Below are positions 140 to 34,991 of a stretch of 35,693 nucleotides of DNA, in pieces. The notes beneath the pieces were generated by a model. The model worked only from the letters and a program-made list of their open reading frames with translations. It was not told the origin of the DNA and searched no databases. Position 1 is the stretch's first letter. The number at the start of each line of letters is the position of its first letter. Source of the stretch: a virus; UHGV virus genome UHGV-0241471. One strand, given 5' to 3'. A program made the position numbers and the translations under genes.

Positions 140-147
140 TAAATCAA

Positions 148-180
148 GGGGCTACGTGAAAGCGTAGCCCCTTTTTCTTT
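148..180. terminator. Bidirectional intrinsic terminator hairpin (ssrA on + strand; RT transcript on - strand)
   Basis: Stem GGGGCTACG / CGTAGCCCC with 6-nt loop followed by TTTTTCTTT on + strand; T-rich on the complementary strand as well. Confidence 0.65.
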
Positions 181-185
181 GGTAG

Positions 186-204
186 TGGCGGCAAAATGGC
201 GGCA
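186..204. promoter_or_regulatory. Candidate Int arm-type sites (two TGGCGGCA repeats, 11-bp period) at attL
   Basis: AGTGGCGGCAAAATGGCGGCAGGCATT here closely matches AGTGGCGGCATTTTGGCGGCAGAGCATT at 35008-35035 beside attR. Confidence 0.4.
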
Positions 205-245
205 GGCATTCAGTCAAGCCCAGTTGCTACTACATGCGATCGCAA

Positions 246-1019
246 TTACAACTTAAAGAGTTTTGCTTGCCCTGGATTAACAGCTTCGACGTAGTTTTTG
301 ACCCCTATTCTGTGCGGCTCATAATTGCTTGAATAGAAATCAATCAGGAAGTCACTCATTTTCTGAGATGTGACTTTCATAACTCCCTTACTCAAAGTTA
401 AATTAAACACGCTAATCTTTGACGATGGTGCCTGAGTTTTACTCATGTTGGCTTGATAACCAGATTTACGCATTGCCACTAGTGCTTCGTCGTAAGCCGC
501 TTGTAATTGGGCCAAATCGTTTGACGAGATGATCACATCATCCATAAACACACTTAGCTTGAGATCATGATGTTTGTTCAATCGGCGTAGTAAGCTACCA
601 AAATAACTTTTATCTAAGCAGAGGGTTGCAAGTATTGGAGATTGAACAAAACCAAAAGGGAGGACATGCTTATGTGGACTATGGGACAAGTTTCTTACAG
701 TTGAAAATGTTGAGATTTCCCGCGCTTGAGAATAGGTGAAGTAGCTCTTTAGATCACGGGTGATACGACTACGGCTCGTTGACTGAAAAAATTGTTTAAT
801 ATCAACAACGGCAAAAAAATCACTTTTTAAGTGTAATCTGGCAGCTTTAAGATGCCCACCAGTTCTTAGATGGTAAAAATAGAGTGGCGGAATCCACTTG
901 TTTCTGACAGCCTGAAGTATCTTCCCTCCGACTTTACGTGCCTCAACGCTTGGGACATAAACCCAAACCCCGGGCTTAATCTCAAATTTATCTTCCCACC
1001 TTTGAACTTCTATTGTCAT
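246..1019 (-). CDS. Compact reverse transcriptase (257 aa), retron/defence-associated RT-like; palm motifs present, catalytic box FMDD
   Basis: Translation shows motif A VVDIKQFFQS (res 71-80), motif B' LPFGFVQSPILATL (120-133), motif C FMDD (158-161, nt 537-548); N-terminal VYVPSVEARKVGGKIL and H-x3-D-F spacing resemble retron-type RTs as recalled. In-frame TAA two codons upstream of the ATG; no obvious SD. Confidence 0.8.
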   Translation of the reverse strand: MTIEVQRWEDKFEIKPGVWVYVPSVEARKVGGKILQAVRNKWIPPLYFYHLRTGGHLKAARLHLKSDFFAVVDIKQFFQSTSRSRITRDLKSYFTYSQAREISTFSTVRNLSHSPHKHVLPFGFVQSPILATLCLDKSYFGSLLRRLNKHHDLKLSVFMDDVIISSNDLAQLQAAYDEALVAMRKSGYQANMSKTQAPSSKISVFNLTLSKGVMKVTSQKMSDFLIDFYSSNYEPHRIGVKNYVEAVNPGQAKLFKL

Positions 1020-1161
1020 GAGTTAAATTGTTGTAGTTGAAGGCCATGTTAAGAACGGCGTAAACCGCACCAACTAAGCCAACAAACGCGGTTGCGCATT
1101 TGAGCATAGCGGTGATCAGTTCAACACGCGCCTTAACTAAGCCAAGTTCGTTTGTATCCAT
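988..1161 (-). CDS. Small hydrophobic protein (57 aa from second ATG; one predicted TM helix), overlaps RT start in another frame
   Basis: ORF with GGAGG 8 nt upstream of ATG at 1161; hydrophobic stretch LITAMLKCATAFVGLVGAVYAVLNMAF; 3' end overlaps RT ATG by 32 nt. Confidence 0.4.
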   Translation of the reverse strand: MDTNELGLVKARVELITAMLKCATAFVGLVGAVYAVLNMAFNYNNLTHDNRSSKVGR

Positions 1162-1179
1162 AACTTGTTCCTCCATAGA

Positions 1180-1362
1180 TACCTGACGTCTCTTAGCGCA
1201 AGCGCATGGCCCTAACTAAATAAAAAATAACAACCAGTTAGCCCAGAAAGCTTAACAAGTCGGCGTCCGATTACATGGCAATCAGGTAATCGGTCCGCAG
1301 TCGCAAAGCGACAAACTACATATCTACGGAGTGGGGATAAATCCCCGCTAACGTCAGGCATT
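1180..1362 (-). ncRNA. Candidate structured ncRNA upstream of the RT module (retron msr/msd-like), bounded by imperfect inverted repeats
   Basis: Inverted repeats CCTGACGT…TAGCG (1182-1198) and CGCTA ACGTCAGG (1346-1358); internal hairpins CCGATTAC/GTAATCGG (8 bp), GTCGC/GCGAC, GGGGA/TCCCC; G-run immediately 3' of the 5' repeat on the - strand. Confidence 0.3.
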
Positions 1363-1422
1363 GTTAATTTAACCTCAACTTATAGAAAAGTATAGTTTTA
1401 AATCATGTAGTTATGTCGCCAT

Positions 1423-1641
1423 TTAAATCGGCAAACCCACCTGTTTAAATTTATGAGGATGCGGCTGAACCGGATTTGACTCTTTTGGCGTTGCAATCGA
1501 ACGAACAAAAGTTTCATGGGTAACAAAAGTATGGCTGCAGTTAATGTTCTGGCACTGGTTGTAACGCTCTTTGGTCAATGAAGATACCTGAAAACTGCTG
1601 CGAGTATGGGCGGCACTTCCACACAGTGGGCAAATCATCAT
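1423..1641 (-). CDS. ogr: Ogr/Delta-type zinc-finger late transcription activator (72 aa from internal MM start)
   Basis: MMICPLCGSAAHTRSS…KERYNQCQNINCSHTF matches the Ogr C4 zinc-finger pattern; GGGGAGA SD before ATG at 1641; the longer upstream ORF extension is unlikely. Confidence 0.85.
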   Translation of the reverse strand: MMICPLCGSAAHTRSSFQVSSLTKERYNQCQNINCSHTFVTHETFVRSIATPKESNPVQPHPHKFKQVGLPI

Positions 1642-2831: not shown

Positions 2832-3313
2832 GACAGCAGCCCTCCCACCGTTTTACTGATATCGCTTAAGGCAGATGTTGCCGTTCCCTGCAGATTATTC
2901 AGTTGCGCACTGAGATCACCGAACATATCGGACAGGGATTCATCCACGCGTTTTAGCGACAGGGTGAACTCAATCCTGCGCGGCATACCGTCGCGGAAAA
3001 ACTCCGTTTTAGTCTGATTCAGTCCCTCAATCACATACATGCCGTAAATCGTGCCGCTGCCTTCAATCAGGGGCCATGCTTTCCCCTGTTCTGCCATCTG
3101 CTCCAGTGCCAGCAACGACAGCCTGCCGCCTGTTATTTCCGGCATAAGAACGCCAGAAAGCGTCAGCATGTCGTTATCCGGTCCCAGAAACTGCGTTGAC
3201 GGGCGTCGGTTAACCCGGCTGTTAGCCGCATGTCGCCAGCTGCGCTGATACTGCAGCTCCTGATACGGCACGGTGCGCAGCATAAACACGTATAATCCCA
3301 GCACCATCATCAT
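2828..3313 (-). CDS. Tail protein, P2 gpU-like
   Basis: 161-aa ORF, overlapping stop/start with neighbours, P2 order T-U-D. Confidence 0.8.
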   Translation of the reverse strand: MMMVLGLYVFMLRTVPYQELQYQRSWRHAANSRVNRRPSTQFLGPDNDMLTLSGVLMPEITGGRLSLLALEQMAEQGKAWPLIEGSGTIYGMYVIEGLNQTKTEFFRDGMPRRIEFTLSLKRVDESLSDMFGDLSAQLNNLQGTATSALSDISKTVGGLLS

Positions 3314-6300
3314 GCGTCGTATCCCCCCTGATCGCTGTAGTTACTCCTGGCTTTTGCCTTCAGCCTGCGTTCACGTTCATCAAGCTGGCGGGCCACCTCC
3401 CGCGCAATATCCTGCGCACTTTGTCCTGGCTGCGTCTGAATGATGATCTGCGTCGGTGCCTCAATCCGTTGAACGGGCGGCACAGTGGCTGCACGACTCA
3501 ACATCGCTTCGCCGCCTTTCGCGGGAAGTGCCAACGGATGCAACGGTGGAAGCTCTGCAGGCGCGGCAGCAACACCCATCATTCCGGCAACAACGGCAGC
3601 CAGTGCAGCTGTATTTCTCCGGCTGGTCACATTTGCCGGGCCGTTAACAATTTCCGGCCCGTTTTCACCGACGATGCCAAACTGCCCGCGCGGGATATAG
3701 CCGCCGCTGTCATACATCCCCGCAAAGCCATATCCCCATGACGGAAAACCACCCGATGGCATCATCACTTTACCGTCTGCATTCACCGTCGCAGGTTGCT
3801 GACGCGTCACTCTTTCCGGCAGTTTCGCCTTTGCAGCCTCTTTACTGACAATGCCGAGTTTCTCCAGCAACCAGGAAACGCCAGATTTCAGGGAGTCCAG
3901 CGGATGCATGACCATATTCAGCCCTTCCGCCAGTGCCTCCCCGAATCTCCGCCCCATTGCCGCTGCACTCTGCAGTTCGGCAGAGGTCGACTTAACGGGC
4001 GTCAGCAGATCAGTAAACCAGCCCCACAGCGCCTGCACTTTGTCGCCAATCCACTGGAACACAGGCTTAAGCGGTTCGAACGCTGCACTGATGGGACCTG
4101 CCGCCGCTTTGAATCCTTCCACCACGCCACCGAGAAATGCGGTGATGGGTTGCCAGTATTTCCAGACAACCAGTGCCACACCCGCCAGTGCAGCAACCAC
4201 AAGACCTATCGGACTGAGCAGAGCACCTAACAGACCAGATACGGCATACAGGGCAACGCGCAACATCGCCAGTGGACCAGATGCCAGTACTCGCAGCACC
4301 GTGCCTGTGGCAGCCAGCCCGCCGCGTAGTGCTGCCAGTGGATTCATAAACATCACAGCAACCGCACGTAAACCGGATAATCCAGACCGCAACAGTGCAA
4401 CCGGCGCATCTGCTACAGTTTTCAGGACATTTCCCGTCAGTGATGCCGTGCGGTGCAAAGACGACAACGGCGCAGTAAGTAAACCCGCTGCGTTGCCCGA
4501 TGAAGCAAGCCCGCGTCGCAGCAGTGCCAGTGGAGCGCCAGCCAGCCAGGACAACGCGCTGCTGGTTCGAGTTACTGCTGCCGTAACGGAAGGTAACGTT
4601 TTGATACCCAGCACAGAGAATCCCAGACGGATCACTGCCAGCGGCCCCAGCACTGCAGCCAGCGCCACCGCTAAGGTGCCGAGGCCTACGGTAACCGCAG
4701 CCACAACAGCCGCTACTTTCATCAGTGTGCCTGTCAGTTCCGGGTTAGCTTCCACCCAGCGGCGCAACGCCCCCGTAATGCTTTTCACCGTGTACAGAAT
4801 ATCCATCAGCGGCTGGCGCAGCGTTTCGCCCAGGCTGCTGAAGGTGTTCTGCGCTCCGGTTTTAACCAGCAACCACTGAGCAGAAAGTGAGTCCTTGTTG
4901 ATGTCGGATTCTTTCTGCATGGAACCGAGCGCATCATTGCCCGCTGTCAGTTTTAGCTGGCGCTGCAGTTCCGGCAGGTTGTTTGCCAGTTTCGCCGCGT
5001 CATCACCAAACTCTTTACCAAACAACATGGTCATGGCAGACAGACGCTTGTCCTGCGGCAGTGCGTTCACCTTCTCCAGCACACGCTGGATAGTTCCCAT
5101 CGCATCCTTCGTCATCTGCTTTTCAATCACTTCAGGATTGAGTTTCAGCAGATTCATCCCTTCAAAGAAACTCTTGCTTTGCATGGTGGCAATGGACAAT
5201 TCACGCACCATCGCGTTTGCTGCACTGGCTGCAACCTCCGGCGCAGCGCCCAGTGTCAGAAAGGTGGAACCCAGTGCCGCCGCTTTACGATAATCCAGAC
5301 GGTCAGCCACACCGCCCAGACGTTGCATGACATCAATGATGTCCGCCCCTTTTGACATGGCGTTATCATCCAGATAGTTCAGCGCATCGCCGAGCTGTTC
5401 AATATTACGGGTAGGTATTTTGTAGAGCTGGGCGATTTTCCCCAGACTTTCTGACAGTTCATCCGCTGGCAGCTCAAAGGCTATTGCCGCCTTTGCCGCC
5501 GTACTGGCGAAGGCCAGCAGGTCACGTTTCTGGTCTTCCCAGCTGTCGTCAGGGTTTGCGACGTTCATACGCGCACCACCTTCAACCAGTGCAGCGAAGT
5601 CCACCGCACCGTTTTCCATCGGCAACTGTTCGCTGGCAGCCTTGATGGCATCCTGCATTTCATAAAAACGTGCAGTGCGGTTGCCATTATCGTCACGCAG
5701 ACCATTGACCTGCTTTGCCACACCTTTCATGGCATCTTCCATGCTGGTATAGCTTTTTACTGCCGCCATCACTGGTGTCCCCATTGCCAGCCCTGCAGCC
5801 GTGGTGGTGGCTCCGGCTCCTGCAATACGATCACGCACCTCCAGCGAACGGGCATAACTGGCACGCGCCGCATTCATCCTGCGCTGAGCTTCCCCCAGTC
5901 GCTTCAGCCGCGCCTCCTGTTTTGACAATTCCTGGTTATAACGTGATGTTTCACGGGCTAAACGGGCAGTTGCTCCCGCATCATCTTTCGCAGAAATTCC
6001 CGCCCGATACAGTTCTGCACGCACAAGCGCCGTTTGCTTCTGCAAATATTTTTGTTGTTCTTCCAGGCGTTGGACTGCCAGCGTTTGCCGACCTAAAGCC
6101 ACAAGGTGCCGTTGTGATGGTTGTTCCATCGCTTCCAGCTCAGAACTAAGCAAATTTGCCTTCTGTCTGGCATAGTTCAGCCTGTCGCCTAACCTTTTGT
6201 TATCGGCCTGCAGCTTGCGAAATTTTTCCAGGCTGTTACCCGCCTGATTGAGTTGCTTTAATGCGTCACGGGAGTTTCTGATTGCGCCAGCCAGCTCTTT

Positions 6301-6387
6301 CGAACTGGCCTGTGCAGCACGGAATGGGCGGGTGAGTTTGTCAACCGCATTAAGAATGACCTGCAGGCGCAGGTTATTATCACTCAT
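3310..6387 (-). CDS. Tail tape measure protein, P2 gpT-like
   Basis: 1025-aa ORF rich in coiled-coil and Ala/Gly-rich hydrophobic segments, downstream of E/E'. Confidence 0.85.
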   Translation of the reverse strand: MSDNNLRLQVILNAVDKLTRPFRAAQASSKELAGAIRNSRDALKQLNQAGNSLEKFRKLQADNKRLGDRLNYARQKANLLSSELEAMEQPSQRHLVALGRQTLAVQRLEEQQKYLQKQTALVRAELYRAGISAKDDAGATARLARETSRYNQELSKQEARLKRLGEAQRRMNAARASYARSLEVRDRIAGAGATTTAAGLAMGTPVMAAVKSYTSMEDAMKGVAKQVNGLRDDNGNRTARFYEMQDAIKAASEQLPMENGAVDFAALVEGGARMNVANPDDSWEDQKRDLLAFASTAAKAAIAFELPADELSESLGKIAQLYKIPTRNIEQLGDALNYLDDNAMSKGADIIDVMQRLGGVADRLDYRKAAALGSTFLTLGAAPEVAASAANAMVRELSIATMQSKSFFEGMNLLKLNPEVIEKQMTKDAMGTIQRVLEKVNALPQDKRLSAMTMLFGKEFGDDAAKLANNLPELQRQLKLTAGNDALGSMQKESDINKDSLSAQWLLVKTGAQNTFSSLGETLRQPLMDILYTVKSITGALRRWVEANPELTGTLMKVAAVVAAVTVGLGTLAVALAAVLGPLAVIRLGFSVLGIKTLPSVTAAVTRTSSALSWLAGAPLALLRRGLASSGNAAGLLTAPLSSLHRTASLTGNVLKTVADAPVALLRSGLSGLRAVAVMFMNPLAALRGGLAATGTVLRVLASGPLAMLRVALYAVSGLLGALLSPIGLVVAALAGVALVVWKYWQPITAFLGGVVEGFKAAAGPISAAFEPLKPVFQWIGDKVQALWGWFTDLLTPVKSTSAELQSAAAMGRRFGEALAEGLNMVMHPLDSLKSGVSWLLEKLGIVSKEAAKAKLPERVTRQQPATVNADGKVMMPSGGFPSWGYGFAGMYDSGGYIPRGQFGIVGENGPEIVNGPANVTSRRNTAALAAVVAGMMGVAAAPAELPPLHPLALPAKGGEAMLSRAATVPPVQRIEAPTQIIIQTQPGQSAQDIAREVARQLDERERRLKAKARSNYSDQGGYDA

Positions 6388-8710: not shown

Positions 8711-9277
8711 TCAGGGGGATTCATTGCTCTTATTTGCCGGAAATTTTCTATAAATGGTAGAAACGCCTACATCAAAAATCAGTGCAATACGCTGTCTTGA
8801 TTCTCCGGCCTCGAGTAAACGCCCAATCTGTGCCCACTGTTCGGTGGTCAACTTAGGACGGCGTCCACCTACTCTGCCTTTGGCACGAGCTGCAGCCAGC
8901 CCTGCCATGGTACGTTCAACTATCAGTTCGCGTTCCATTTTAGCCAGGACCCCCATGACATGAAAAAAGAAACGGCCCATTGGGGTGCTGGTATCAATAC
9001 TGTCAGTCAGGCTTCGGAAATTCACGCCACGCTGACGCAACTCTTCTATCAGTGTAACAAGATGCCGCATACTGCGCCCCAACCTGTCCAGCTTCCAGAC
9101 AACCAGAGTGTCTCCTGCCGATAGTGTCCTGAGCAGTTTTTTAAGCCCCGGTCTGTCGGACTTAGTGCCACTGATTTTATCCTCAAAAATCCGCTCACAT
9201 CCCGCGCAGTTCAGTGCATTACGTTGCAAATCGGTGTTCTGGTCATTTGTTGACACGCGTACATAGCCAATAAGCAT
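8711..9277 (-). CDS. Serine DNA invertase (Pin/Gin/Hin family)
   Basis: MLIGYVRVSTNDQNTDLQRNAL… catalytic Ser motif and C-terminal HTH; AGGGGA SD before ATG at 9277; adjacent to crossover site. Confidence 0.9.
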   Translation of the reverse strand: MLIGYVRVSTNDQNTDLQRNALNCAGCERIFEDKISGTKSDRPGLKKLLRTLSAGDTLVVWKLDRLGRSMRHLVTLIEELRQRGVNFRSLTDSIDTSTPMGRFFFHVMGVLAKMERELIVERTMAGLAAARAKGRVGGRRPKLTTEQWAQIGRLLEAGESRQRIALIFDVGVSTIYRKFPANKSNESP

Positions 9278-9332
9278 GATCAATCCCCTGAATAAAAACC
9301 GTGGATGATGCCAGTTAGCCATTATCTCTGCA

Positions 9333-24272: not shown

Positions 24273-25706
24273 TCATTCAATACTATCTAGACGACTAACA
24301 TTCATTTTATTGAGAAAGTCTCTATTAAAACCGAAATGATACCAGTTACTAGTATTTCGCTGGGCCTCACCCTCTGTCAGCTTTTGAGCCAAAAGTTTAC
24401 TGTCATCGATTCCGGTAATAACTGCAATACTCTTGAATCCTCTATGCTGTATTGCTCTTGTAAATAGAGGATATTTCTCATAGTGCCCGGAATACAACAA
24501 CATTTGCGGGTACCAAAAAATACCGGGATTAATGAAGGATATCATAAGAGCAACAAGATCAGCTTGTTTCAAATCATCGAAAGACACATCATCTCTAGTT
24601 GCACTTTGCTTTACTAACTCAGCAACAGGGGAATACAGTCGATAGTTTTCAGGGGACAATTTACTTTGAAGGTAATCAGAGCTTAAATATAACTCACTGT
24701 AATTAGCAAACTCCATTCCCGGACTGGTTATATGATCGGGTAGCAAATAAGATGTATGCAGTAATGTATGTACATGCTGGAAAGCTTCAATTTTTATTAA
24801 AGCCGCCAAAATATATAAAAACGTTTCATACGCAAAAATCTGATGGGGCAAAAACCATATTTCATTATATGAATTTACATTTTTCGGACGATTTCTAATC
24901 GCTAACATTACTTCCATAAACTGTAATAGTGCTTTGGAAAAGTCTTCGCCCTGCGTATCACCCTCAAGTAAAACCCAGTCTGTAATGGCATCCCTAACGG
25001 CAATAAGCTCTTTATGAATTTGCAAAACTTCCGCTGCAAAATCTTCAGTAGTTGGGTTTGTTACGACTTGTAGTGAGATACAATAATTTCGGCACACCTC
25101 TAAAAATTGCCTTCTGCAATCCTTTAATGTCTGCTTTTGATTTAAGACAGCTGATTTTAAAGTTTGAAATTTTGCATGAATTTCATACGTCGGTTTTGAC
25201 GTGTCTTGCTCTAAATAAACCGGAGGCTTACCTAATGGTGGCTTAGTAAATTCTGGTTTTCCATAAAGCAACCTGATTAAACGTTCCCAATTATCATTTT
25301 CTTTTTCTGGTGTTGAAAAATCAATATAGATTCTAGACTTCAGAAAGATTGGAGTATACGGCTCTCCATTATCTTTGTACTCAAATATTAATGGTATAAA
25401 TTTGGACTGCGACACGGATGAATATATTTCCTGGGAAATTATCATCGACTCAACACCGACACCATCTTTTCTTAAATCGGCTTTTTCTGAGTATTTTTTA
25501 TCACAAATGACTAAAACATGCGTAACCGTTTCATCTTGAACCATTCTTTCCATGTAATAATTTTTATCATCCCCTTCTTTCAAGTCATAAATATCTATGA
25601 CAGTTTCAACTCCATCTGCCGCCAATCGTTCAGCCATATCTTTGATATGTTGCTGATGAGTTTTACTTGACCAACTATAGGATATAAAAACTTTTGGCTG
25701 GATCAT
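24273..25706 (-). CDS. SEFIR/TIR-like domain protein (477 aa), candidate standalone anti-phage effector
   Basis: N-terminus KVFISYSWSS…IDIYD…FIPLIFEY fits the SEFIR/TIR pattern as recalled; about 300-aa helical C-terminal domain of unknown type; GGGAGG SD; visibly AT-rich versus flanks. Confidence 0.6.
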   Translation of the reverse strand: MIQPKVFISYSWSSKTHQQHIKDMAERLAADGVETVIDIYDLKEGDDKNYYMERMVQDETVTHVLVICDKKYSEKADLRKDGVGVESMIISQEIYSSVSQSKFIPLIFEYKDNGEPYTPIFLKSRIYIDFSTPEKENDNWERLIRLLYGKPEFTKPPLGKPPVYLEQDTSKPTYEIHAKFQTLKSAVLNQKQTLKDCRRQFLEVCRNYCISLQVVTNPTTEDFAAEVLQIHKELIAVRDAITDWVLLEGDTQGEDFSKALLQFMEVMLAIRNRPKNVNSYNEIWFLPHQIFAYETFLYILAALIKIEAFQHVHTLLHTSYLLPDHITSPGMEFANYSELYLSSDYLQSKLSPENYRLYSPVAELVKQSATRDDVSFDDLKQADLVALMISFINPGIFWYPQMLLYSGHYEKYPLFTRAIQHRGFKSIAVITGIDDSKLLAQKLTEGEAQRNTSNWYHFGFNRDFLNKMNVSRLDSIE

Positions 25707-26594: not shown

Positions 26595-29009
26595 TTAATA
26601 CAGGTTTCGCCACTTATCATCTTCCTGCAAACGCTGGTTCCGACAGAAGATACGCAGGCCTGCTCCTGACGGAATACTGCCACCGCGAAGGAGCAGATCG
26701 ACCTCTTTCTCGCTGCCATCAAATCCTCTTGACTTCAGTTCATAGACGAGCTGCTGTCGCTGATGGTCTGTAATTCGCTGTTTGTAGTCTTTACGCCGTT
26801 TCGGTTTCACCAGGCGTAACCTTGCAGCCAGTTCCCGGCGCTCTTTTTTGCTCATACTGTGCAGGTAATCGTGCAACTCCTTGTCATCCATGCGGGTAAT
26901 GTCCGTCCTGGTATCCCCATCAGCTGATTTGTCTTTCCCTTGTTGGTTCAAATTTTCAGCAAGGGGACAGTTATTGCCACGAGTCCAAGGGGCGCAAGCG
27001 CCCTGGTCGGCTGCCGCCTCCTGAACGTCAACGGCCTTACGAACCATTTTCCACTTCACGGCATGAGTGCAGATCTTGCCCTCTGCAATAGGTGACCAGA
27101 TGCCATAAATACGAATGCCGTGATCGCCATAGGCGGTCGGCTCTTCGTTGATTTCATAAGCAGTTCTGATGAGGTGATATTTACGGGGAACCAGTACGCC
27201 GCCCTGCTTCATGATGTAGGTGGCAAAACAACCAGCATCAGCAGCAGCCAGGATTGCATCAAGGCGCGGGTTATCCAGTACCGGCGCACCTGCTTTTTTG
27301 TCACCCTGTTGCCTTGCCGCCTGACCAGCCAGCAATCGCAGTTCACGGTAAGCCTGACGCCCCGGAATGCCAAAGAAGCGGAATTGCTGAACACGATGCA
27401 GAGACGCCCAGGCATTCACGTATTCAGCGTTATCACGCAGGGATTTACCCGTTTCCTTGCTGATCTCGCCAGCCAGACCACGCCCGTCAATGTTCTTACT
27501 GATATATTTCGCGATGTAGCTTGTCGGCGTTCCTTTGCGCGGGTTAATCAACTCAGACTTAAAGCGTGGTCCCGTGTTATTCCCCAGCTCCTCGCGGTCT
27601 TCACGAATGGCAAACTTACGCAACAAAGCAGTAATGGCGCGGCGATCTTTTTTGCGCATAAAACACAACAGGTGCCAGTGAACTGTACCGTCATGATGCG
27701 GCTCAGCCACCCGCACGCCATACCAGCGCAATCCGGCTTTGTGCATCGCCTTACGAAATGCAGCAAACATGCCAACCAGATAATCACTGCTTTGTCTTAC
27801 CGTCGCATTTGTCCAGGTCGGGTTGGGCCTGCCGTTATTTAGCGTGGAATGGAAACGTGACGGACAGGTGATGGTGTAGAAAACGGCGCAGTCACCGCGC
27901 ATTTCCGCGATAAGCTCCAGGCCTTTAACACAGGCCATCATCTCATTGCGGCGATGCGCAGGGTTGCTGCTGCTGGCGTTTACCACATCCTCCATGTCCA
28001 GCGTGTCGCCGTCTTCGTTCACCAGTTCATGAGAACGGAAAAACTCCAGCGACTTACGGCGCTGCTCACGTTTATGCATCACGGCTTCATAGCTGACATA
28101 GGGAGATGCTTTTTTGCTGACCAGACAGACAGCACGCAACTGCTCTTCCCGCCATTCGCAACGCATCTTCCATAATTTCCGATACCACCAGTCGGCGCAC
28201 AGCATACGCGCCAGCGAACCCGGAATGAGTTCATAGGGCACAGGTTTGCGGCGGTTTCTTTTCCGGCGGAGTTGCTCAAACGCAGGCGGTATGACATCCA
28301 GTCGCAGGGTTTCTGCTGCCACCTTTTCCCATGTCTTGCGGATTTCTTCCGGCTTAACATCATCGGAGGCGTACAAATCACCACAAGCGGCATCAAGACA
28401 CATGCTCATATGCGCAGCGACAAGGGTGGACAGGCGTTTCACCTGATCCTGACTCATTTCAGGCAGGCTCAGCAGACCGTCCAGCCCTTCATGGCTTGCC
28501 ATAAAACGAAAAGATGCAGATAGCTGGCTGTCGCGTACATGCTCCAGTCGTTCCAGGCATGGCTTAATCGTCTCACGCAAATAGCGGGAATAAGCCTTTG
28601 GCCTGCCCAGGTTGCTGAAGTATTTAATACGTTGCATCAGCGGCTTGCTGATATGGGAAGGCTGGGCGTTGACATCCGCCAGAATGACCATGTCTGGATT
28701 AAAACGCTGCTGCTCATGCGCCAGCTTTGCCCGGCTAATTAGCTTATCCTGCTCCATTTCGCGCTGGACAGGATCACGGGATTCATTAAAGAAATAACGC
28801 TCCCAGACCTGATCACTCAGTGCCTCGCGGCGCAGTTGTTCCTGCTCGTTATCGGCAGCGTACAGAGTGATCAGGTTTGAAAGCGCAGAAACCGGCGCAA
28901 CTTCCGCCGGGTCCAGATAAGGGTTAATGGCCTTTTTCGGGCTGTTCCATGAGAATGCTGCGGCAGCCTCGTTAAAGCCGCAGCAGTTGTTCATATCGGC
29001 ATGGCTCAT
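26595..29009 (-). CDS. Rolling-circle replication initiator, P2 gpA-like
   Basis: HuH-like VHWHLL and active-site tyrosine pair SYIAKYISK seen in the 804-aa translation; start codon uncertain. Confidence 0.85.
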
Positions 29010-29863
29010 GCACGTACTCCGTACACGGCAGAACTGTCCACGCCACGCGAATAATCAAATCCCACCCAGCAGCGCGGCCCGGAAACAGCAATGATTTCTG
29101 TTGCTGATTTACCCTCTCCAGCTGCCACACCGATGTTGCGTTTTGCCTTGATGTAGTGGTGAGTAAAATTGCGATACAGCGAACGGATCAGGGATGTGTC
29201 ACTGTTAGAAACAATGACCGGATGTCCTTCTGATGACCGATGTTCAAGAACGGATGCCAGGTGATACTGGTCATCTTCAGTGAAGCCGTCAGTGTGATAA
29301 CCGGAAAACGTGCCGTCATACGGCGGATCGCAATACACCACATCCCCCGCCTTCAACATCGCCAGCGTTTCATCAAAGCTGGCGCAGATAAACGTTGCCC
29401 GCTGGGCTTTTTCTGCAAATGCGCGAATTTCTTTTTCAGGGAAATACGGATTTTTATAATTACCGTAGGGAATGTTGAAATGCCCGCTCTTGTTATAGCG
29501 ACATAAACCACGGTAACCGTGACGATTGAGATACAGGAAATATACCGCTTTCATGAAATCAGTAATTTCAGTGGAGTAATTAAACTCCTGCCTTATGTTG
29601 TAATAAGCCACCTCCCTGTTTGCGATCTCAAATAAAACTCTGGCGCGAGATATAAACGATTCACAATCAGCGGCAACCTTTTTATAGAGGTTGATTAAAT
29701 CAGGATTAATATCCGCAACCAGATAGCTGGGGTAATCCGTCTCCATCATCACAGCACAGGAACCCGCGAAAGGTTCAACCAGTCGCGGGCCAGCAGGAAG
29801 GTGTTTTTTCAGTTCGGACATAATGGCGGTTTTATTTCCCGCCCATTTCAGGATGGTGCTCAT
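29006..29863 (-). CDS. DNA N6-adenine methyltransferase (Dam family), orphan
   Basis: DPPY motif ([10 protein letters not shown]) and N-terminal AdoMet-binding region; strong GGAGG SD before ATG at 29863; no adjacent restriction gene. Confidence 0.85.
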
Positions 29864-30087
29864 ACAGCACCTCCGTTGTAATGTTTGCCTTTCAGCTCTG
29901 CGATTTCCTGACAGGTAATGCAAAGCTGCACACCTGGAATGGCGCGGCGGCGTGCTGGCGGAATTGGCGCTTCACACTCAATGCAAAGCACGCGGGACAC
30001 GCCCGGCGTTTTGGCACGGGCAGCACGAATATGGCGCTGGCGTTCTTCTTCAACGCGCTGCTGTACAAGATCCATTGCATCAGCCAT
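29860..30087 (-). CDS. TraR/DksA-family C4 zinc-finger protein
   Basis: CIECEAPIPPARRRAIPGVQLCITCQ four-cysteine motif. Confidence 0.7.
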   Translation of the reverse strand: MADAMDLVQQRVEEERQRHIRAARAKTPGVSRVLCIECEAPIPPARRRAIPGVQLCITCQEIAELKGKHYNGGAV

Positions 30088-31810: not shown

Positions 31811-32443
31811 ATGATACAAGTAAAAGCTGGCGAGAATACAGGGGGAAGAGAGGCTATCCATAGGCTAATGGCAGCCTATGATTTCAAGTCCAGACAGCAA
31901 CTTTGCGATCACTTGGGCGCATCAAAAAGCACTATGGCAAACAGATACTTAAGAGATAGTTTTCCTGCAGAATGGGTGATTCAGTGCGCTTTGGAAACAG
32001 GAGTTTCTTTACTGTGGCTAACTACCGGACAGGGCGATCCAGGTTCAAACATTGACCCTAAAAAAAATATCAATTCCGTGAACTCTAGCAAAGTTAAACC
32101 TCTTTCGGAGCTTGTATCTCCTGAAATTGACAAGGCAACTCTCAACGGAGGTTTGCTGATCGATGCTGGAAAAGCAATCATTGATAGCAGCATACTCCCC
32201 TCAGACTCAAGCAACCTGCTGCTGGTGACTACTTCTGGTGATTCTTATTTAATAGATCGCAACCAAACACCACCAGTAAATGGTACGTGGTTAGTGGACA
32301 TCGACGGGATAAAAAGCATTGTAAAATTGACACGACTCCCGGGAAACAGATTAGTAGTGCATCAGGATGATTCATCGTTTGAGTGCGAACTGGATGACAT
32401 TGAGGTAATAGGCCGCGCACTGAAAATCATTAAGAGCCTTTGA
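31811..32443 (+). CDS. CI-type immunity repressor (210 aa)
   Basis: N-terminal HTH, position immediately upstream of int and divergent from apl; AGGA SD. Confidence 0.8.
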   Translation: MIQVKAGENTGGREAIHRLMAAYDFKSRQQLCDHLGASKSTMANRYLRDSFPAEWVIQCALETGVSLLWLTTGQGDPGSNIDPKKNINSVNSSKVKPLSELVSPEIDKATLNGGLLIDAGKAIIDSSILPSDSSNLLLVTTSGDSYLIDRNQTPPVNGTWLVDIDGIKSIVKLTRLPGNRLVVHQDDSSFECELDDIEVIGRALKIIKSL

Positions 32444-32444
32444 T

Positions 32445-33458
32445 ATGACCATCAGAAAACAGCCGAACGGAAAGTGGTTATGTGAATGCTACCCAAACGG
32501 GCGAGATGGCAAACGCGTACGCAAACAATTTGCGACGAAAGGCGAAGCCATTGCGTTTGAGAATTTCACCATGGACGAGGTAAACAAGAAACCTTGGCTG
32601 GGAGAAAAGGAAGATCGGCGACACCTATCAGAATTAATTGAGCTGTGGTATTCCCTGTATGGTCAAACACTCGCAGACCCCAAGCGACTCATGGCGAAAC
32701 TTGGAATTATCTGTAATGGTCTGGGCGATCCCATCGCTTCAGAGCTGACTGCCGGTGACTTTACGAAATACCGCGAAGCACGGCTAAAAGGTGAAGTGCG
32801 AAATGAAGATGGCACGCTGATGTCGCCCGTTAAGCCCCGCACGGTAAACCTTGAACAGCGCAATCTATCATCTGTGTTCGGTACATTAAAAAAACTAGGA
32901 CACTGGTCAGCACCAAACCCGCTGGCAGGACTTCCGACCTTCAAAATTGCCGAAGGTGAGCTGGCTTTTCTTTCCACGGACGAAATCAAGCGCCTGTTGG
33001 CGGCATGTGCTGAATCTCAAAGCCCTAGCTTACTAATGATTGCAAAAATATGCCTGGCTACTGGCGCACGGTGGAGTGAAGCCGAAAATCTGCAGGGCCA
33101 TCAAATATCGAAATACCGAATTACTTATACAAAAACAAAAGGCAAGAAAAACCGTACTGTGCCGATATCTCAGGATCTGTATGATGAACTCCCCAAAAAC
33201 AGAGGAAAGTTATTCACGCCATGCAGAAAAGCCTTTGAGCGGGCAGTAAAGCGGGCCGGTATTGACCTACCGGAGGGCCAATGCACCCACGTGCTTCGCC
33301 ATACATTCGCCAGTCACTTTATGATGAACGGCGGAAACATACTGGTACTGCGTGATATTTTGGGTCATGCCGATATAAAAATGACCATGATTTACGCCCA
33401 CTTTTCGCCCGATCACCTTGAAGACGCGGTGACTAAAAATCCTCTTTATAATTTGTAG
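32445..33458 (+). CDS. int: Tyrosine integrase (P2/186 Int family)
   Basis: C-terminal catalytic signature HVLRHTFAS … HADIKMTMIYAHF; start overlaps cI stop. Confidence 0.9.
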   Translation: MTIRKQPNGKWLCECYPNGRDGKRVRKQFATKGEAIAFENFTMDEVNKKPWLGEKEDRRHLSELIELWYSLYGQTLADPKRLMAKLGIICNGLGDPIASELTAGDFTKYREARLKGEVRNEDGTLMSPVKPRTVNLEQRNLSSVFGTLKKLGHWSAPNPLAGLPTFKIAEGELAFLSTDEIKRLLAACAESQSPSLLMIAKICLATGARWSEAENLQGHQISKYRITYTKTKGKKNRTVPISQDLYDELPKNRGKLFTPCRKAFERAVKRAGIDLPEGQCTHVLRHTFASHFMMNGGNILVLRDILGHADIKMTMIYAHFSPDHLEDAVTKNPLYNL

Positions 33459-33470
33459 TGGAGACCTATT

Positions 33471-34991
33471 GTGATTCAAAAATTAGATATTCAATCTGAT
33501 GCGGTTGCAAAGTTAAGAATGGATGCTATTCGTTCAGAAATCCAAGGTTATTCCCCTGATTTATTTATCGAATTCTGTATGCAATATAACTTACAAAAAT
33601 TTGAAGATAATATCCACATGTTACGACACATGCCTTGGATTGTTAATTTATGTCTAAAGTGGTCTGCGTCAGTAACTGGCAAGAATAAAAAATTCAAAAT
33701 CCTCGATAAAAATCAAGCAATAAAACTCTTCCAAAAAACTTATGAAACCTTGAACATTATTCCTATCGGTCTTGAGAGGAAGAATGGCATGCATTTCTTC
33801 ATTAGAAATAATCTATACCAACAAGGAATCTACCAGAAAATTGACGCTCTAAACACAATTAGCAGACAAGTCTTTCTATTTTCAGAACTTGAAAAAAACC
33901 ATAAAATAAAGACAAGTTTTTTTACTATCACGAATGTATCTATCGAAGACTTTCTTAAGCTATCTTACATATTAATAACTCACATAACAGAAGAGCATCC
34001 CGTGAGAAAAATGAATGTAGATACATTTACTATATTATTTGACATCATTCCTAGAAATACCATTGAGAAATTTCTTGATGCAATATCAATAAATTACAAT
34101 GAACTATCTACATTTTGCAAATCAAAAACCTATGATAAACCTTTGCTTGAATACTACTCATCATCACCTTTTCTTGAAAAACCATTAATAAAAAAAGGTT
34201 CAGAGTATTTTCAGATACACACACAACTGACTTCAACAAGCATACAGACGTTCATATATGATCTTTTAAGAAGAACTGATGCCGAGAAGTTCATGGATAG
34301 CTTTGGAAATGTATTTGAAAATGCACTGGAATTAATACTAAAAGAAAGCGAAATTGATTTTCATAACGAAAAATACCTTAAAGAACGACTACCTAAAGAT
34401 AATAAAGTAGTTGATTATTTCATTCCACATACTGAGGCAAATATTTTCATTGATGCTAAAGGCGTTGAGATACACCAAAAAGGCATGGTAACATTACGCC
34501 CTGAGGATATTGCAGGAAAAATAAAGAAATCGGTATTAAAAGCAATCGAACAATCTCACGAAGTTAATCGAGAAATATACTCTAATGAGCGAATAATAGC
34601 TCCATTCAGGGCTAACTCATATATCATTTGCATTACATATAAAAACCTTTTCTTAGGCAATGGTAGTATCCTAGCTAATACTTATGCTAAAGATGAGATG
34701 AATAAGATATATGACAAGTTTAAACATAACTATCATATCCCTACAGAGAATATTTTTTGTCTATCATTTGAAGAGTTTGAATATCTCATTGCATCATGCA
34801 AAAGGTTTAAAATTCCGCCTCATGAAGTCTTGCAATCTGCAGTTGAAAAGAACAAAAAACCATCAAGTGCTGCTTTCCTATTTTCCCACCATATAGAAGA
34901 CTATTTTGATAGAGTAGTCAATTCAGTCATAGTCAATGAGGCAGGCATTAAAATGGTAGATTCTATTATCAATAAATTAAAGCCTGAATAA
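33471..34991 (+). CDS. AT-rich cargo protein (506 aa) with PD-(D/E)xK-like nuclease motif; candidate defence or abortive-infection gene
   Basis: GTG start with GGAG SD 8 nt upstream; motif VVDYFIPHTEANIFIDAKGVE (D … D-A-K) about residues 330-350; composition markedly more AT-rich than the phage backbone. Confidence 0.6.
   Translation: MIQKLDIQSDAVAKLRMDAIRSEIQGYSPDLFIEFCMQYNLQKFEDNIHMLRHMPWIVNLCLKWSASVTGKNKKFKILDKNQAIKLFQKTYETLNIIPIGLERKNGMHFFIRNNLYQQGIYQKIDALNTISRQVFLFSELEKNHKIKTSFFTITNVSIEDFLKLSYILITHITEEHPVRKMNVDTFTILFDIIPRNTIEKFLDAISINYNELSTFCKSKTYDKPLLEYYSSSPFLEKPLIKKGSEYFQIHTQLTSTSIQTFIYDLLRRTDAEKFMDSFGNVFENALELILKESEIDFHNEKYLKERLPKDNKVVDYFIPHTEANIFIDAKGVEIHQKGMVTLRPEDIAGKIKKSVLKAIEQSHEVNREIYSNERIIAPFRANSYIICITYKNLFLGNGSILANTYAKDEMNKIYDKFKHNYHIPTENIFCLSFEEFEYLIASCKRFKIPPHEVLQSAVEKNKKPSSAAFLFSHHIEDYFDRVVNSVIVNEAGIKMVDSIINKLKPE

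Follow-up and report, generated by a model that had tools for sequence, protein, structure and literature searches.

A compact retron-like module of a P2-like prophage with a small protein gene overlapping the reverse transcriptase start

The small protein gene and the reverse transcriptase

The 35,693-nucleotide stretch of viral DNA analyzed here (UHGV virus genome UHGV-0241471, hereafter the window) contains a cargo segment of ~1.2 kb on the minus strand, between the ogr gene of a P2-like prophage and the ssrA attachment site. Three elements follow one another in this segment: a noncoding RNA (ncRNA; 1156-1364), a gene for a small protein (SP; 988-1161), and a reverse transcriptase (RT) gene (246-1019). 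By analogy with characterized systems, the module is a probable anti-phage retron-like system, and comparison of its relatives points to a widespread, compact retron-like family, apparently unclassified, that is carried by P2-like phages. Members of the RT family were collected from the protein databases, giving 72 clusters when searched by single sequence and 576 by profile, and a genome survey with one genome per species yielded 165 species hits among 185,579 representative genomes. The 80 loci retrieved span the alpha-, beta-, and gammaproteobacteria, along with a few metagenome-assembled genomes (MAGs) from other phyla; locus counts of 82 given below comprise the window and its relatives.

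The SP gene (988-1161, minus strand) encodes 57 amino acids (MDTNELGLVKARVELITAMLKCATAFVGLVGAVYAVLNMAFNYNNLTHDNRSSKVGR). A first-pass annotation of the window had marked a small open reading frame (ORF) of 57 to 62 aa at 988-1176, between a candidate ncRNA and the RT; the ORF is present, and a covariance model supports an ncRNA at 1156-1364, but of the two lengths only the shorter is conserved. The first ATG (1174-1176), which opens the 62-aa form (988-1176), falls within the Shine-Dalgarno (SD) sequence and is replaced by ACG in an 81%-identical relative (locus L050), so the conserved product is that of 57 aa. The same product (WP_000380485.1), starting at the second ATG (1159-1161), is called by the annotation pipeline PGAP in identical Escherichia coli loci. 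The SD itself, GGAGG at 1170-1174 as read from the sequence, lies 8 nt ahead of the ATG at 1161 and is as good as had been claimed. Residues 22 to 41 of SP (CATAFVGLVGAVYAVLNMAF) are without charge, and the best 19-mer reaches 1.94 on the Kyte-Doolittle scale. Searches of Pfam, PADLOC, and NCBIfam returned nothing for SP, its best PHROG match is non-significant (E = 0.079), and its database homologs are all labeled "hypothetical protein."

In 80 of 82 loci, the RT is directly preceded by an SP-type ORF, which starts with ATG in all 80 and has an SD with a score of at least 4 in 77. These proteins measure 39 to 95 aa (median, 51), with a usually basic N terminus followed by a long hydrophobic helix, the character and length of which are kept from alpha- to gammaproteobacteria. 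Mean column identity is only 17%. The sole near-invariant residues are a C-terminal Asn-Tyr pair (NY; Y invariant and N in at least 90% of 67 sequences), encoded in the window by AAC TAC (Asn42-Tyr43, 1033-1038, minus strand), 13 nt upstream of the RT start; in the split loci, the distance from the end of NY to the RT start codon has a median of 10 nt and ranges from −2 to 31. Both NY codons show synonymous variation (AAC/AAT and TAC/TAT). Upstream of the overlap with the RT, codon-position entropy is 1.41/1.13/1.57, and the ratio of nonsynonymous to synonymous substitution rates (dN/dS) has a median of 0.35 over 59 pairs and is below 1 in 40 of the 40 comparisons listed. By these comparative measures, SP is a genuine, separately initiated gene under purifying selection, not a frameshift remnant, and it deserves annotation as a gene, even though its PGAP label is only "hypothetical protein." The first-pass annotation had named homologs with an intact RT and no small ORF as the finding that would speak against it; none was seen, as SP went undetected at just two loci, L015 and L081, and both look degraded. 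In L015 (“Candidatus Erwinia dacicola”), on a contig of 1.3 kb, an unrelated upstream ORF precedes an RT match that begins only at residue 19, and L081 (a Thermodesulfobacteriota MAG) has a frameshift within the RT and retains the ncRNA (103 bits).

A divergent variant of the module in E. coli S171-1 (L002, 2495-3700, compared with window 140-1430) shows a mosaic pattern of identity. The ncRNA and the first ~26 SP codons are almost 100% identical to those of the window, and the later part of SP and the RT show ~70% nucleotide and 67% protein identity, which suggests a recombination breakpoint inside SP. The prophage in that strain is flanked by ybjL, not ssrA.

The SP gene ends inside the RT gene. 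Its stop codon (TAA, 988-990) lies 29 nt beyond the RT ATG (1017-1019), so that the two genes share 32 nt (988-1019, minus strand) with the RT in the +1 frame, as the first-pass annotation had described. Also as described, nothing resembling an SD stands ahead of the window RT ATG (CAACAATTTAACTC-ATG); the RT likewise lacks an SD in 56 of 80 loci and has one with a score of at least 4 in 13. The overlap in split loci ranges from 4 to 173 nt (median, 35). Of the 80 loci, 66 place the RT in the +1 frame relative to SP and 12 in the −1 frame, and the remaining 2 have the genes fused. The search for fused homologs proposed in the first-pass annotation thus had a mixed outcome: several natural in-frame fusions exist, but among the 80 loci the genes are split in 78. 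The fusions, which measure 299 to 312 aa, include proteins from Klebsiella pneumoniae (P0036, 302 aa) and Serratia (P0019, 309 aa), a metagenomic gammaproteobacterial-type sequence (P0141, 299 aa), and genes in Kistimonas (L069) and a Desulfobulbales MAG (L045). Because they belong to different SP sublineages, fusion has had several independent origins. An assembly collection lists the fused P0036 allele in 7,802 indexed blocks, the loci shown being K. pneumoniae chromosomes. Relatives on viral contigs include both arrangements, fused in L083 to L086 and split in the +1 frame in L087 to L090; what separates L086 from L089 is essentially an indel of one base in the interval from NY to the RT ATG, and this ATG remains in frame within the fused ORFs. 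The natural fusions and their interconversion by a single base indicate that the SP and RT products are functionally linked.

In the K. pneumoniae chromosomes L091 to L093, the fused 302-aa gene (4001-4909) lies ~0.7 kb downstream of a umuD/umuC-like pair. A second protein with an RVT_1 domain, of 494 aa, is encoded 2.4 kb upstream of the fused gene in L091.

The RT gene (246-1019, minus strand) encodes 257 aa with a Pfam RVT_1 match (2e-21) and the active-site motif FMDD at about residues 157 to 161 (D160 and D161; about window 543-554, minus strand). The first position of this motif is Y in at least 90% of the family (YMDD or YVDD) and F in the window; the E. coli S171-1 variant carries YMDD. 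The source databases name the protein only "reverse transcriptase domain-containing protein." According to the first-pass annotation, the small ORF and the RT could be the halves of a roughly 310-aa RT split by a frameshift. The sizes do add up, the sum of 57 and 257 being 314 aa compared with 306 to 320 aa in solved retron RTs, but ~255 aa is normal in this family: among the best 120 of the 576 RT clusters, 116 measure 249 to 266 aa and the others 275, 299, 302, and 309 aa. Furthermore, in 76 of 83 sequences a stop codon within the 20 codons before the expected start closes the RT frame, two of the other seven being fusions, and the RT body of a fused homolog is complete when modeled. For this locus, the split-gene proposal fails on these three counts.

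Among proteins of solved structure, the best sequence matches in the PDB are retron RTs (Ec86 at 3e-12, along with Kva2, Eco8, Ec78, Ec67, and Ec83), with group II intron RTs trailing at about 5e-5. An AlphaFold2 model was built for the fused homolog P0036 from an 80-row alignment, in which only three fused rows covered the SP part; a single-sequence model of the window RT (predicted local distance difference test [pLDDT] of 32) was not used. Residues ~50 to 302 of the P0036 model have a pLDDT of 93 to 99, the SP part forms one helix (residues 3 to 36) with a pLDDT of ~60, and the linker between this helix and the RT, which contains NY, falls below 50. The top 18 Foldseek matches of the model in the PDB are all retron RTs (TM scores of 0.59 to 0.69), those of Ec83, Ec86, Ec78/Eco7, Eco8, and Eco2; DRT9 and group II intron RTs come next. 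As modeled, then, the ~255-aa RT is complete and has a retron-type fold, and the 257-aa protein is to be treated as full length, not as a pseudogene. Against curated models, the top score was obtained with PADLOC RT_VI (63 bits, 6.6e-18), with about the same on RT_I-B and RT_IX; the best values over 38 family members were 1.9e-24 for RT_VI and 4.6e-24 for RT_I-B, and NCBIfam retron_St85_RT gave 49.5 bits versus a cutoff of 235. Because these scores lie far below the curated cutoffs, retron membership holds at the superfamily level only.

The ncRNA and the start of the small protein gene

The retron-type ncRNA, a putative msr-msd, was located on the minus strand (1156-1364) with a covariance model built from non-enterobacterial relatives only, which matched over its full length (33.2 bits, E of about 1e-5) and had no other match within the window. 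The matched stretch, which reaches into the SP translation start, folds with a minimum free energy of −69.1 kcal/mol (z = −2.2). An Rfam scan of the stretch assigned it to no family, the only matches being of the transfer-messenger RNA (tmRNA) type and to one unrelated small RNA. The a1 arm (AUGCCUGACGUU, 1350-1361, minus strand) is followed by UUAGCG and the hairpin GGGGAUUUAUCCCC (1333-1346), whereas the a2 arm (GACGUCAGGUAU, 1179-1190, minus strand) is preceded by the conserved hairpin CCAUGCGCUUGCGCUAAG (1192-1209) and ends 17 nt before the SP ATG. The a1/a2 helix consists of 7 pairs, 6 of which show changes on both sides (RNAalifold and pair counting), and 98% of the cells pair, compared with 30 to 38% in controls with the partner column slid.

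The order of elements within the family is a1 (YCCYGGCG), the (A/U)UAGGC hairpin, a CCUCAUC-like segment, a GUCAC-N-GUGA hairpin, and a variable stem, then UGUUGGUU, the CCAUGCGC-UUU-GCGCUAGG hairpin, a2, the SD, and AUG. After a1, the window reads UUAGCG and its relatives (A/U)UAGGC, a sequence that may resemble the context of the branching G of Ec86. A neighboring ncRNA whose terminal inverted repeats pair around internal hairpins, which is among the criteria for retrons, is thus present, and the ~210-nt stretch upstream of SP is to be annotated as a retron-type ncRNA.

A second long-range helix, also covarying, engages the SP start. A CCUC-containing anti-SD segment within the ncRNA (CUCCGUAGAUAU, 1320-1331, minus strand) forms a 12-nt pairing with an SD arm (GUAUCUAUGGAG, 1171-1182, minus strand) that holds most of the SD and has GUAU in common with a2. 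A comparable helix scores at least 9 in 59 of the 80 loci scored, with a mean of 10.2 versus 7.8 when the upstream region is shuffled. Pairing within the same locus averages 9.26 versus 7.13 across loci and is the better of the two in 59 of 75 cases (Wilcoxon p = 1e-9, a value that is indicative only because the loci are phylogenetically related). The register of the anti-SD slips by 1 to 2 nt in the model-based alignment, and for this reason the own- versus cross-locus test and explicit compensatory examples were used, not a column-wise count of covariation. Such compensatory changes separate the window (CCGUAGAU/AUCUAUGG) from L050 (CCGUAGAA/UUCUACGG) and L083/L087 (CUCUCUGUAC/GUAUAGAGAG) from L086/L089 (CUCUCCGUAC/GUAUGGAGAG). 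The four segments follow one another from 5′ to 3′ as a1, anti-SD, a2, and SD arm, so the two helices cross, forming either a pseudoknot or mutually exclusive folds. With its covariation support, this arrangement is an RNA device well suited to the study of how reverse transcription is linked to translation of an effector. In only two loci, L074 and L041 of Xanthomonas, does the anti-SD recur as an 8- to 9-nt direct repeat (CTCTATTCG), ~30 nt farther along the ncRNA.

Readings of the overlapping genes

Type VI retrons, which encode an ncRNA, a small protein, a Cro/C1 helix-turn-helix (HTH) protein, and an RT, offer the closest precedent for this layout; the HTH gene lies beside or overlaps the RT in ~78% of the entries. 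In Retron-Vpa2, the small protein is a toxin encoded on a "hybrid RNA" together with msr-msd; its ribosome-binding site (RBS) and AUG are enclosed in stems, and translation sets in only once multicopy single-stranded DNA (msDNA) accumulates (bioRxiv 10.1101/2025.10.22.683967). In Retron-Sen3, the small protein is made constitutively and is counteracted by its antitoxin, the RT-binding HTH protein (bioRxiv 10.64898/2026.04.27.721009). More generally, retron effectors occur both as separate proteins and as domains fused to the RT, as in types I-B versus I-C and VII-A2 versus VII-A1 (PMC7736814).

On this analogy, we favor, with some confidence but well short of certainty, the reading that the module is an HTH-less relative of Type VI retrons in which SP acts as the effector peptide, SP translation being gated by the ncRNA and coupled to RT synthesis. 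A coupled small membrane effector was one of the two alternatives raised by the first-pass annotation, and it is the better supported of the two, given the conservation of SP, its own strong SD, the SD-less RT start inside the SP gene, and the Type VI precedent; toxicity and membrane location are inferred. SP would be a toxic, probably membrane-active or oligomerizing peptide, modeled on the Type VI small protein. SP translation would be kept low by the anti-SD helix. With its start codon within the SP ORF and no SD of its own, the RT would be made in consequence of that translation, either through reinitiation or through ribosomes that open the RT start region. The complex of the RT with the ncRNA (msDNA), together with a phage cue, would then set the time at which the SD is exposed or SP is released or acts, such that phage infection would lead to SP-mediated growth arrest. 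Fusion of SP to the RT would be tolerated inasmuch as effector and RT act together, as with the fused effectors of other retron types.

Several observations weigh against the effector reading. An RT that depends on SP translation should be starved whenever the SP SD is repressed, which has to be reconciled with a working retron, and the common fused allele of K. pneumoniae would never free SP unless it is processed, thereby fitting a docked subunit equally well. The single transmembrane (TM) helix that the first-pass annotation assigned to SP suits the uncharged residues 22 to 41 of the window protein, but the best 19-mer carries 1 to 3 charged residues in most family members, so that a single TM helix is plausible for the window and not established family-wide. 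Just 1 of the 67 SP sequences matches the PADLOC model SP_VI (E = 0.025), and it is not that of the window. Nor is the family enriched (4.5 versus 4.3 nt in shuffles) for direct anti-SD repeats within msd, the kind proposed in Retron-Vpa2 to let msDNA open the riboregulator (bioRxiv 10.1101/2025.10.22.683967). Finally, published retron criteria include VTG in RT7 (region Y, with G the most conserved) and NAXXH in region X (with H the most conserved) (Mestre et al. 2020, PMC7736814). The VTG triplet is missing from the RT here, its place in the hidden Markov model alignment to Ec86 being taken by (A/V)-F-N, with F205 and N206 invariant in the family; the region X motif is A59-x-x-x-H63 (AARLH in the window), with H63 invariant and the N of NAxxH not conserved. 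Owing to both replacements, canonical msDNA priming is not guaranteed.

The alternative that survives best, although we judge it rather unlikely, makes SP not a toxin but a part of the RT, either a subunit or a detachable N-terminal module, which would replace the helical N-terminal region of ~45 to 55 residues and serve in RNA binding, priming, or localization (for example, as a membrane tether). The profile alignment of the family to Ec86 starts at residue ~56 to 59, so the short RT lacks this N-terminal region of canonical retron RTs. The combined length of SP and RT (314 aa), like that of the fusions (299 to 312 aa), is close to the 306 to 320 aa of solved retron RTs; fusion has originated repeatedly, with one allele very widespread in K. 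pneumoniae assemblies; the invariant NY always adjoins the RT N terminus; and the Foldseek alignments of the fused model with the Ec83 and Eco7 RTs span 273 to 291 of 302 columns. However, a profile of 25 virtual SP-RT fusions did not reach residues 1 to 55 of Ec86, nor the N-terminal region of any other solved retron RT, so that homology of SP to that region is not established; a possible resemblance to the N termini of Ec67 and Ec86 (...LY-(7 aa)-Y..F.I.KK.G) would be a lead in this direction. AlphaFold2 likewise gave no confident docking of the SP helix (pLDDT of ~60, with the linker below 50, from three fused rows only), and a soluble, packed subdomain would be expected to be much less hydrophobic and much better conserved than SP (17% mean column identity). 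The strong and specifically sequestered SD of SP, next to an RT without one, is an asymmetry typical of a regulated effector.

We consider it improbable that SP is only a regulatory leader, an upstream ORF whose translation delivers ribosomes to the RT start and senses the ncRNA fold while the peptide itself has no function. Such a role would suit the absence of an RT SD in 56 of 80 loci, the position of the RT start within or just after the SP ORF, the RNA-structural control of the SP SD, and the poor overall conservation of the SP sequence. It does not account for the signature of purifying selection (dN/dS below 1 in all 40 comparisons listed, with a median of 0.35 over 59), for an Asn-Tyr pair that is invariant though its codons vary synonymously, for a helix kept in character and length from alpha- to gammaproteobacteria, or for the retention of SP in the 13 loci whose RT has its own SD.

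Similarly doubtful, to our minds, is the more elaborate proposal that SP and RT constitute one machine in three forms (free peptide, free RT, and a fusion produced by +1 frameshifting or, permanently, by a one-base indel like that of the very widespread K. pneumoniae fusion), in which SP would be a detachable N-terminal module, acting as a membrane tether or as a toxin on the RT, and the pseudoknot of the a1/a2 and anti-SD helices would let the state of the ncRNA (bound, primed, or reverse-transcribed) gate translation. If true, a retron of 1.2 kb would be complete in itself, its RNA serving both as the sensor and as the riboswitch that controls the effector and the enzyme.

A programmed +1 (or −2) ribosomal frameshift in the 32-nt overlap, yielding an SP-RT fusion beside free SP and free RT, appears very unlikely. 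The +1 frame prevails in the split loci (66 of 78), fused and split alleles interconvert by one base with both persisting, and the RT ATG is kept in frame inside fused ORFs; yet in 12 loci the RT occupies the other frame, neither the length (4 to 173 nt) nor the sequence of the overlap is conserved, the frame bias may reflect shared ancestry, and inspection of the window overlap (AAU AGA AGU UCA AAG GUG GGA AGA UAA) revealed no known shift-prone motif. Last, the reading of the two ORFs as a recently frameshifted, decaying RT gene of ~310 aa or as a sequencing error, for which the added sizes (57 and 257 aa) and the fused homologs might speak, is rejected as effectively refuted by population and comparative data: the split module recurs over its full length at 99.5 to 99.7% identity in 21 of 5,426 complete E. 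coli genomes (28 genomes cover at least 80% of the module) and at 99.6% or more in 13 Klebsiella phage records, the split layout is also seen in the divergent E. coli variant (67% identical) and in 78 loci spread over the Proteobacteria, and both ORFs are under purifying selection.

Prophage setting and known systems

The window begins with the 3′ end of ssrA, the tmRNA gene (1-137; Rfam, 105.7 bits), and the remainder is a P2-like prophage. A G+C-rich hairpin with T runs on both sides (146-173) lies just past ssrA on the plus strand and ~70 nt past the RT stop on the minus strand, and a consensus scan, the only method applied, finds it terminator-like on both strands. On the other side of the module are the ogr ORF (1423-1734 as listed, with the 72-aa PGAP product at 1423-1641), gpD (1731-2831), and a 1025-aa ORF (3310-6387) whose counterpart in E. 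coli S171-1 is annotated as tail tape measure protein; a CI-type repressor (31811-32443) and the integrase (32445-33458) are encoded farther on. The P2 gpD/ogr surroundings recur in E. coli, Klebsiella michiganensis, and Kalamiella, and Salinicola has gpD alone. The ogr-attR end of P2-like phages is thereby marked as a cargo-carrying site. No third conserved gene (HTH, ATPase, or nuclease) accompanies the module across the 80 loci. The largest neighbor cluster, a 531-aa ORF, is present in 10 of the 80, and an XRE-type HTH ORF, the sole recurrent HTH-like neighbor, is found in 7 in mixed positions and orientations.

The same prophage has a second candidate defense gene, which encodes a 477-aa protein (24273-25706, minus strand) with an N-terminal TIR/SEFIR domain (Pfam SEFIR, 1.5e-14; TIR_2, 2.7e-13). 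It sits between the capsid/portal gene block and an 804-aa ORF (26595-29009), which we take to be the replication gene gpA from its size and position; the location is that of the "old/tin"-type cargo site of P2, which is what makes it a defense candidate. A serine recombinase/invertase gene inside the tail-gene block (8711-9322, minus strand; Resolvase, 6.8e-52, and HTH_7) may be a tail-fiber inversion switch. The early region includes a D12-class N6-adenine DNA methyltransferase (29006-29923, minus strand; MethyltransfD12, 1.5e-76). Directly past the integrase gene, a 506-aa ORF (33471-34991, plus strand) without a Pfam match at E ≤ 0.001 is either more cargo or the first host gene past attL.

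The family has escaped the curated models that were tried in spite of its size (165 species-level hits, 576 protein clusters, and one widespread fused allele), and a limited literature search retrieved no description of an HTH-less family of this kind and no relevant paper that contains the module accessions. At ~255 aa, compared with 306 to 320 aa for solved retron RTs, its enzyme may also interest builders of compact retron editors.

Type I toxin-antitoxin systems of the hok/mok/sok kind resemble the module in having a tiny hydrophobic peptide, an RBS locked by long-range RNA pairing, and coupled overlapping frames. Here, however, the regulator would be a retron-type ncRNA in cis together with the RT; no antisense RNA was identified, and the sequences are unlike. 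Type IV retrons (Retron-Eco6/Ec48) also combine a retron with a hydrophobic, membrane-type accessory protein whose gene adjoins or overlaps the RT gene (PMC7736814). The Ec48-type effector has two TM helices and is encoded downstream of the RT or overlapping its end (PMC7736814), whereas the window SP has one helix and is encoded upstream, overlapping the RT start; PADLOC revealed no sequence relationship between SP and the Type IV effector. With canonical retrons in general, the module shares the tripartite composition of an RT, an ncRNA with terminal inverted repeats, and a candidate effector, separate or RT-fused, as well as an RT fold that, as modeled, is closest to solved retron RTs. It differs in the shorter RT, in the invariant (A/V)FN and the AxxxH that stand in place of VTG and NAxxH, and in the candidate effector, which has 40 to 60 aa on the N-terminal side of the RT, whereas the fused domains described in PMC7736814 are C-terminal.

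The likeness to Type VI retrons (Vpa2, Eco12, and Sen3) is the most extensive. In both, the ncRNA is followed on the same strand by a small, helical, hydrophobic protein and a short RT; the RBS of the small protein is sequestered in ncRNA structure, which is supported here by locus-specific pairing and compensatory changes; and RT_VI is the best PADLOC model for the window RT. The window module, however, contains no Cro/C1 HTH gene and no room for one between SP and RT. Its SP gene runs straight into the RT start, SP and RT form a single protein in some relatives, and SP belongs to a family of shorter proteins (core of 31 to 69 aa, ending in NY) that are not recognizably related to those of Type VI. 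The RBS would be held by a single long-range anti-SD helix crossing a1/a2, the direct repeat between msd and riboregulator of Vpa2 was not found, and the RT, at 63 bits on RT_VI, matches several other types about as well. Because an HTH gene and a Type VI small protein are wanting and the RT scores do not single out RT_VI, the module is classed as retron-like, and as Type VI-like without the HTH, not as a member of Type VI. If SP is indeed its effector, the family would extend the small-protein toxin logic of Type VI to a version that dispenses with the HTH antitoxin and leaves control to the ncRNA and the RT.

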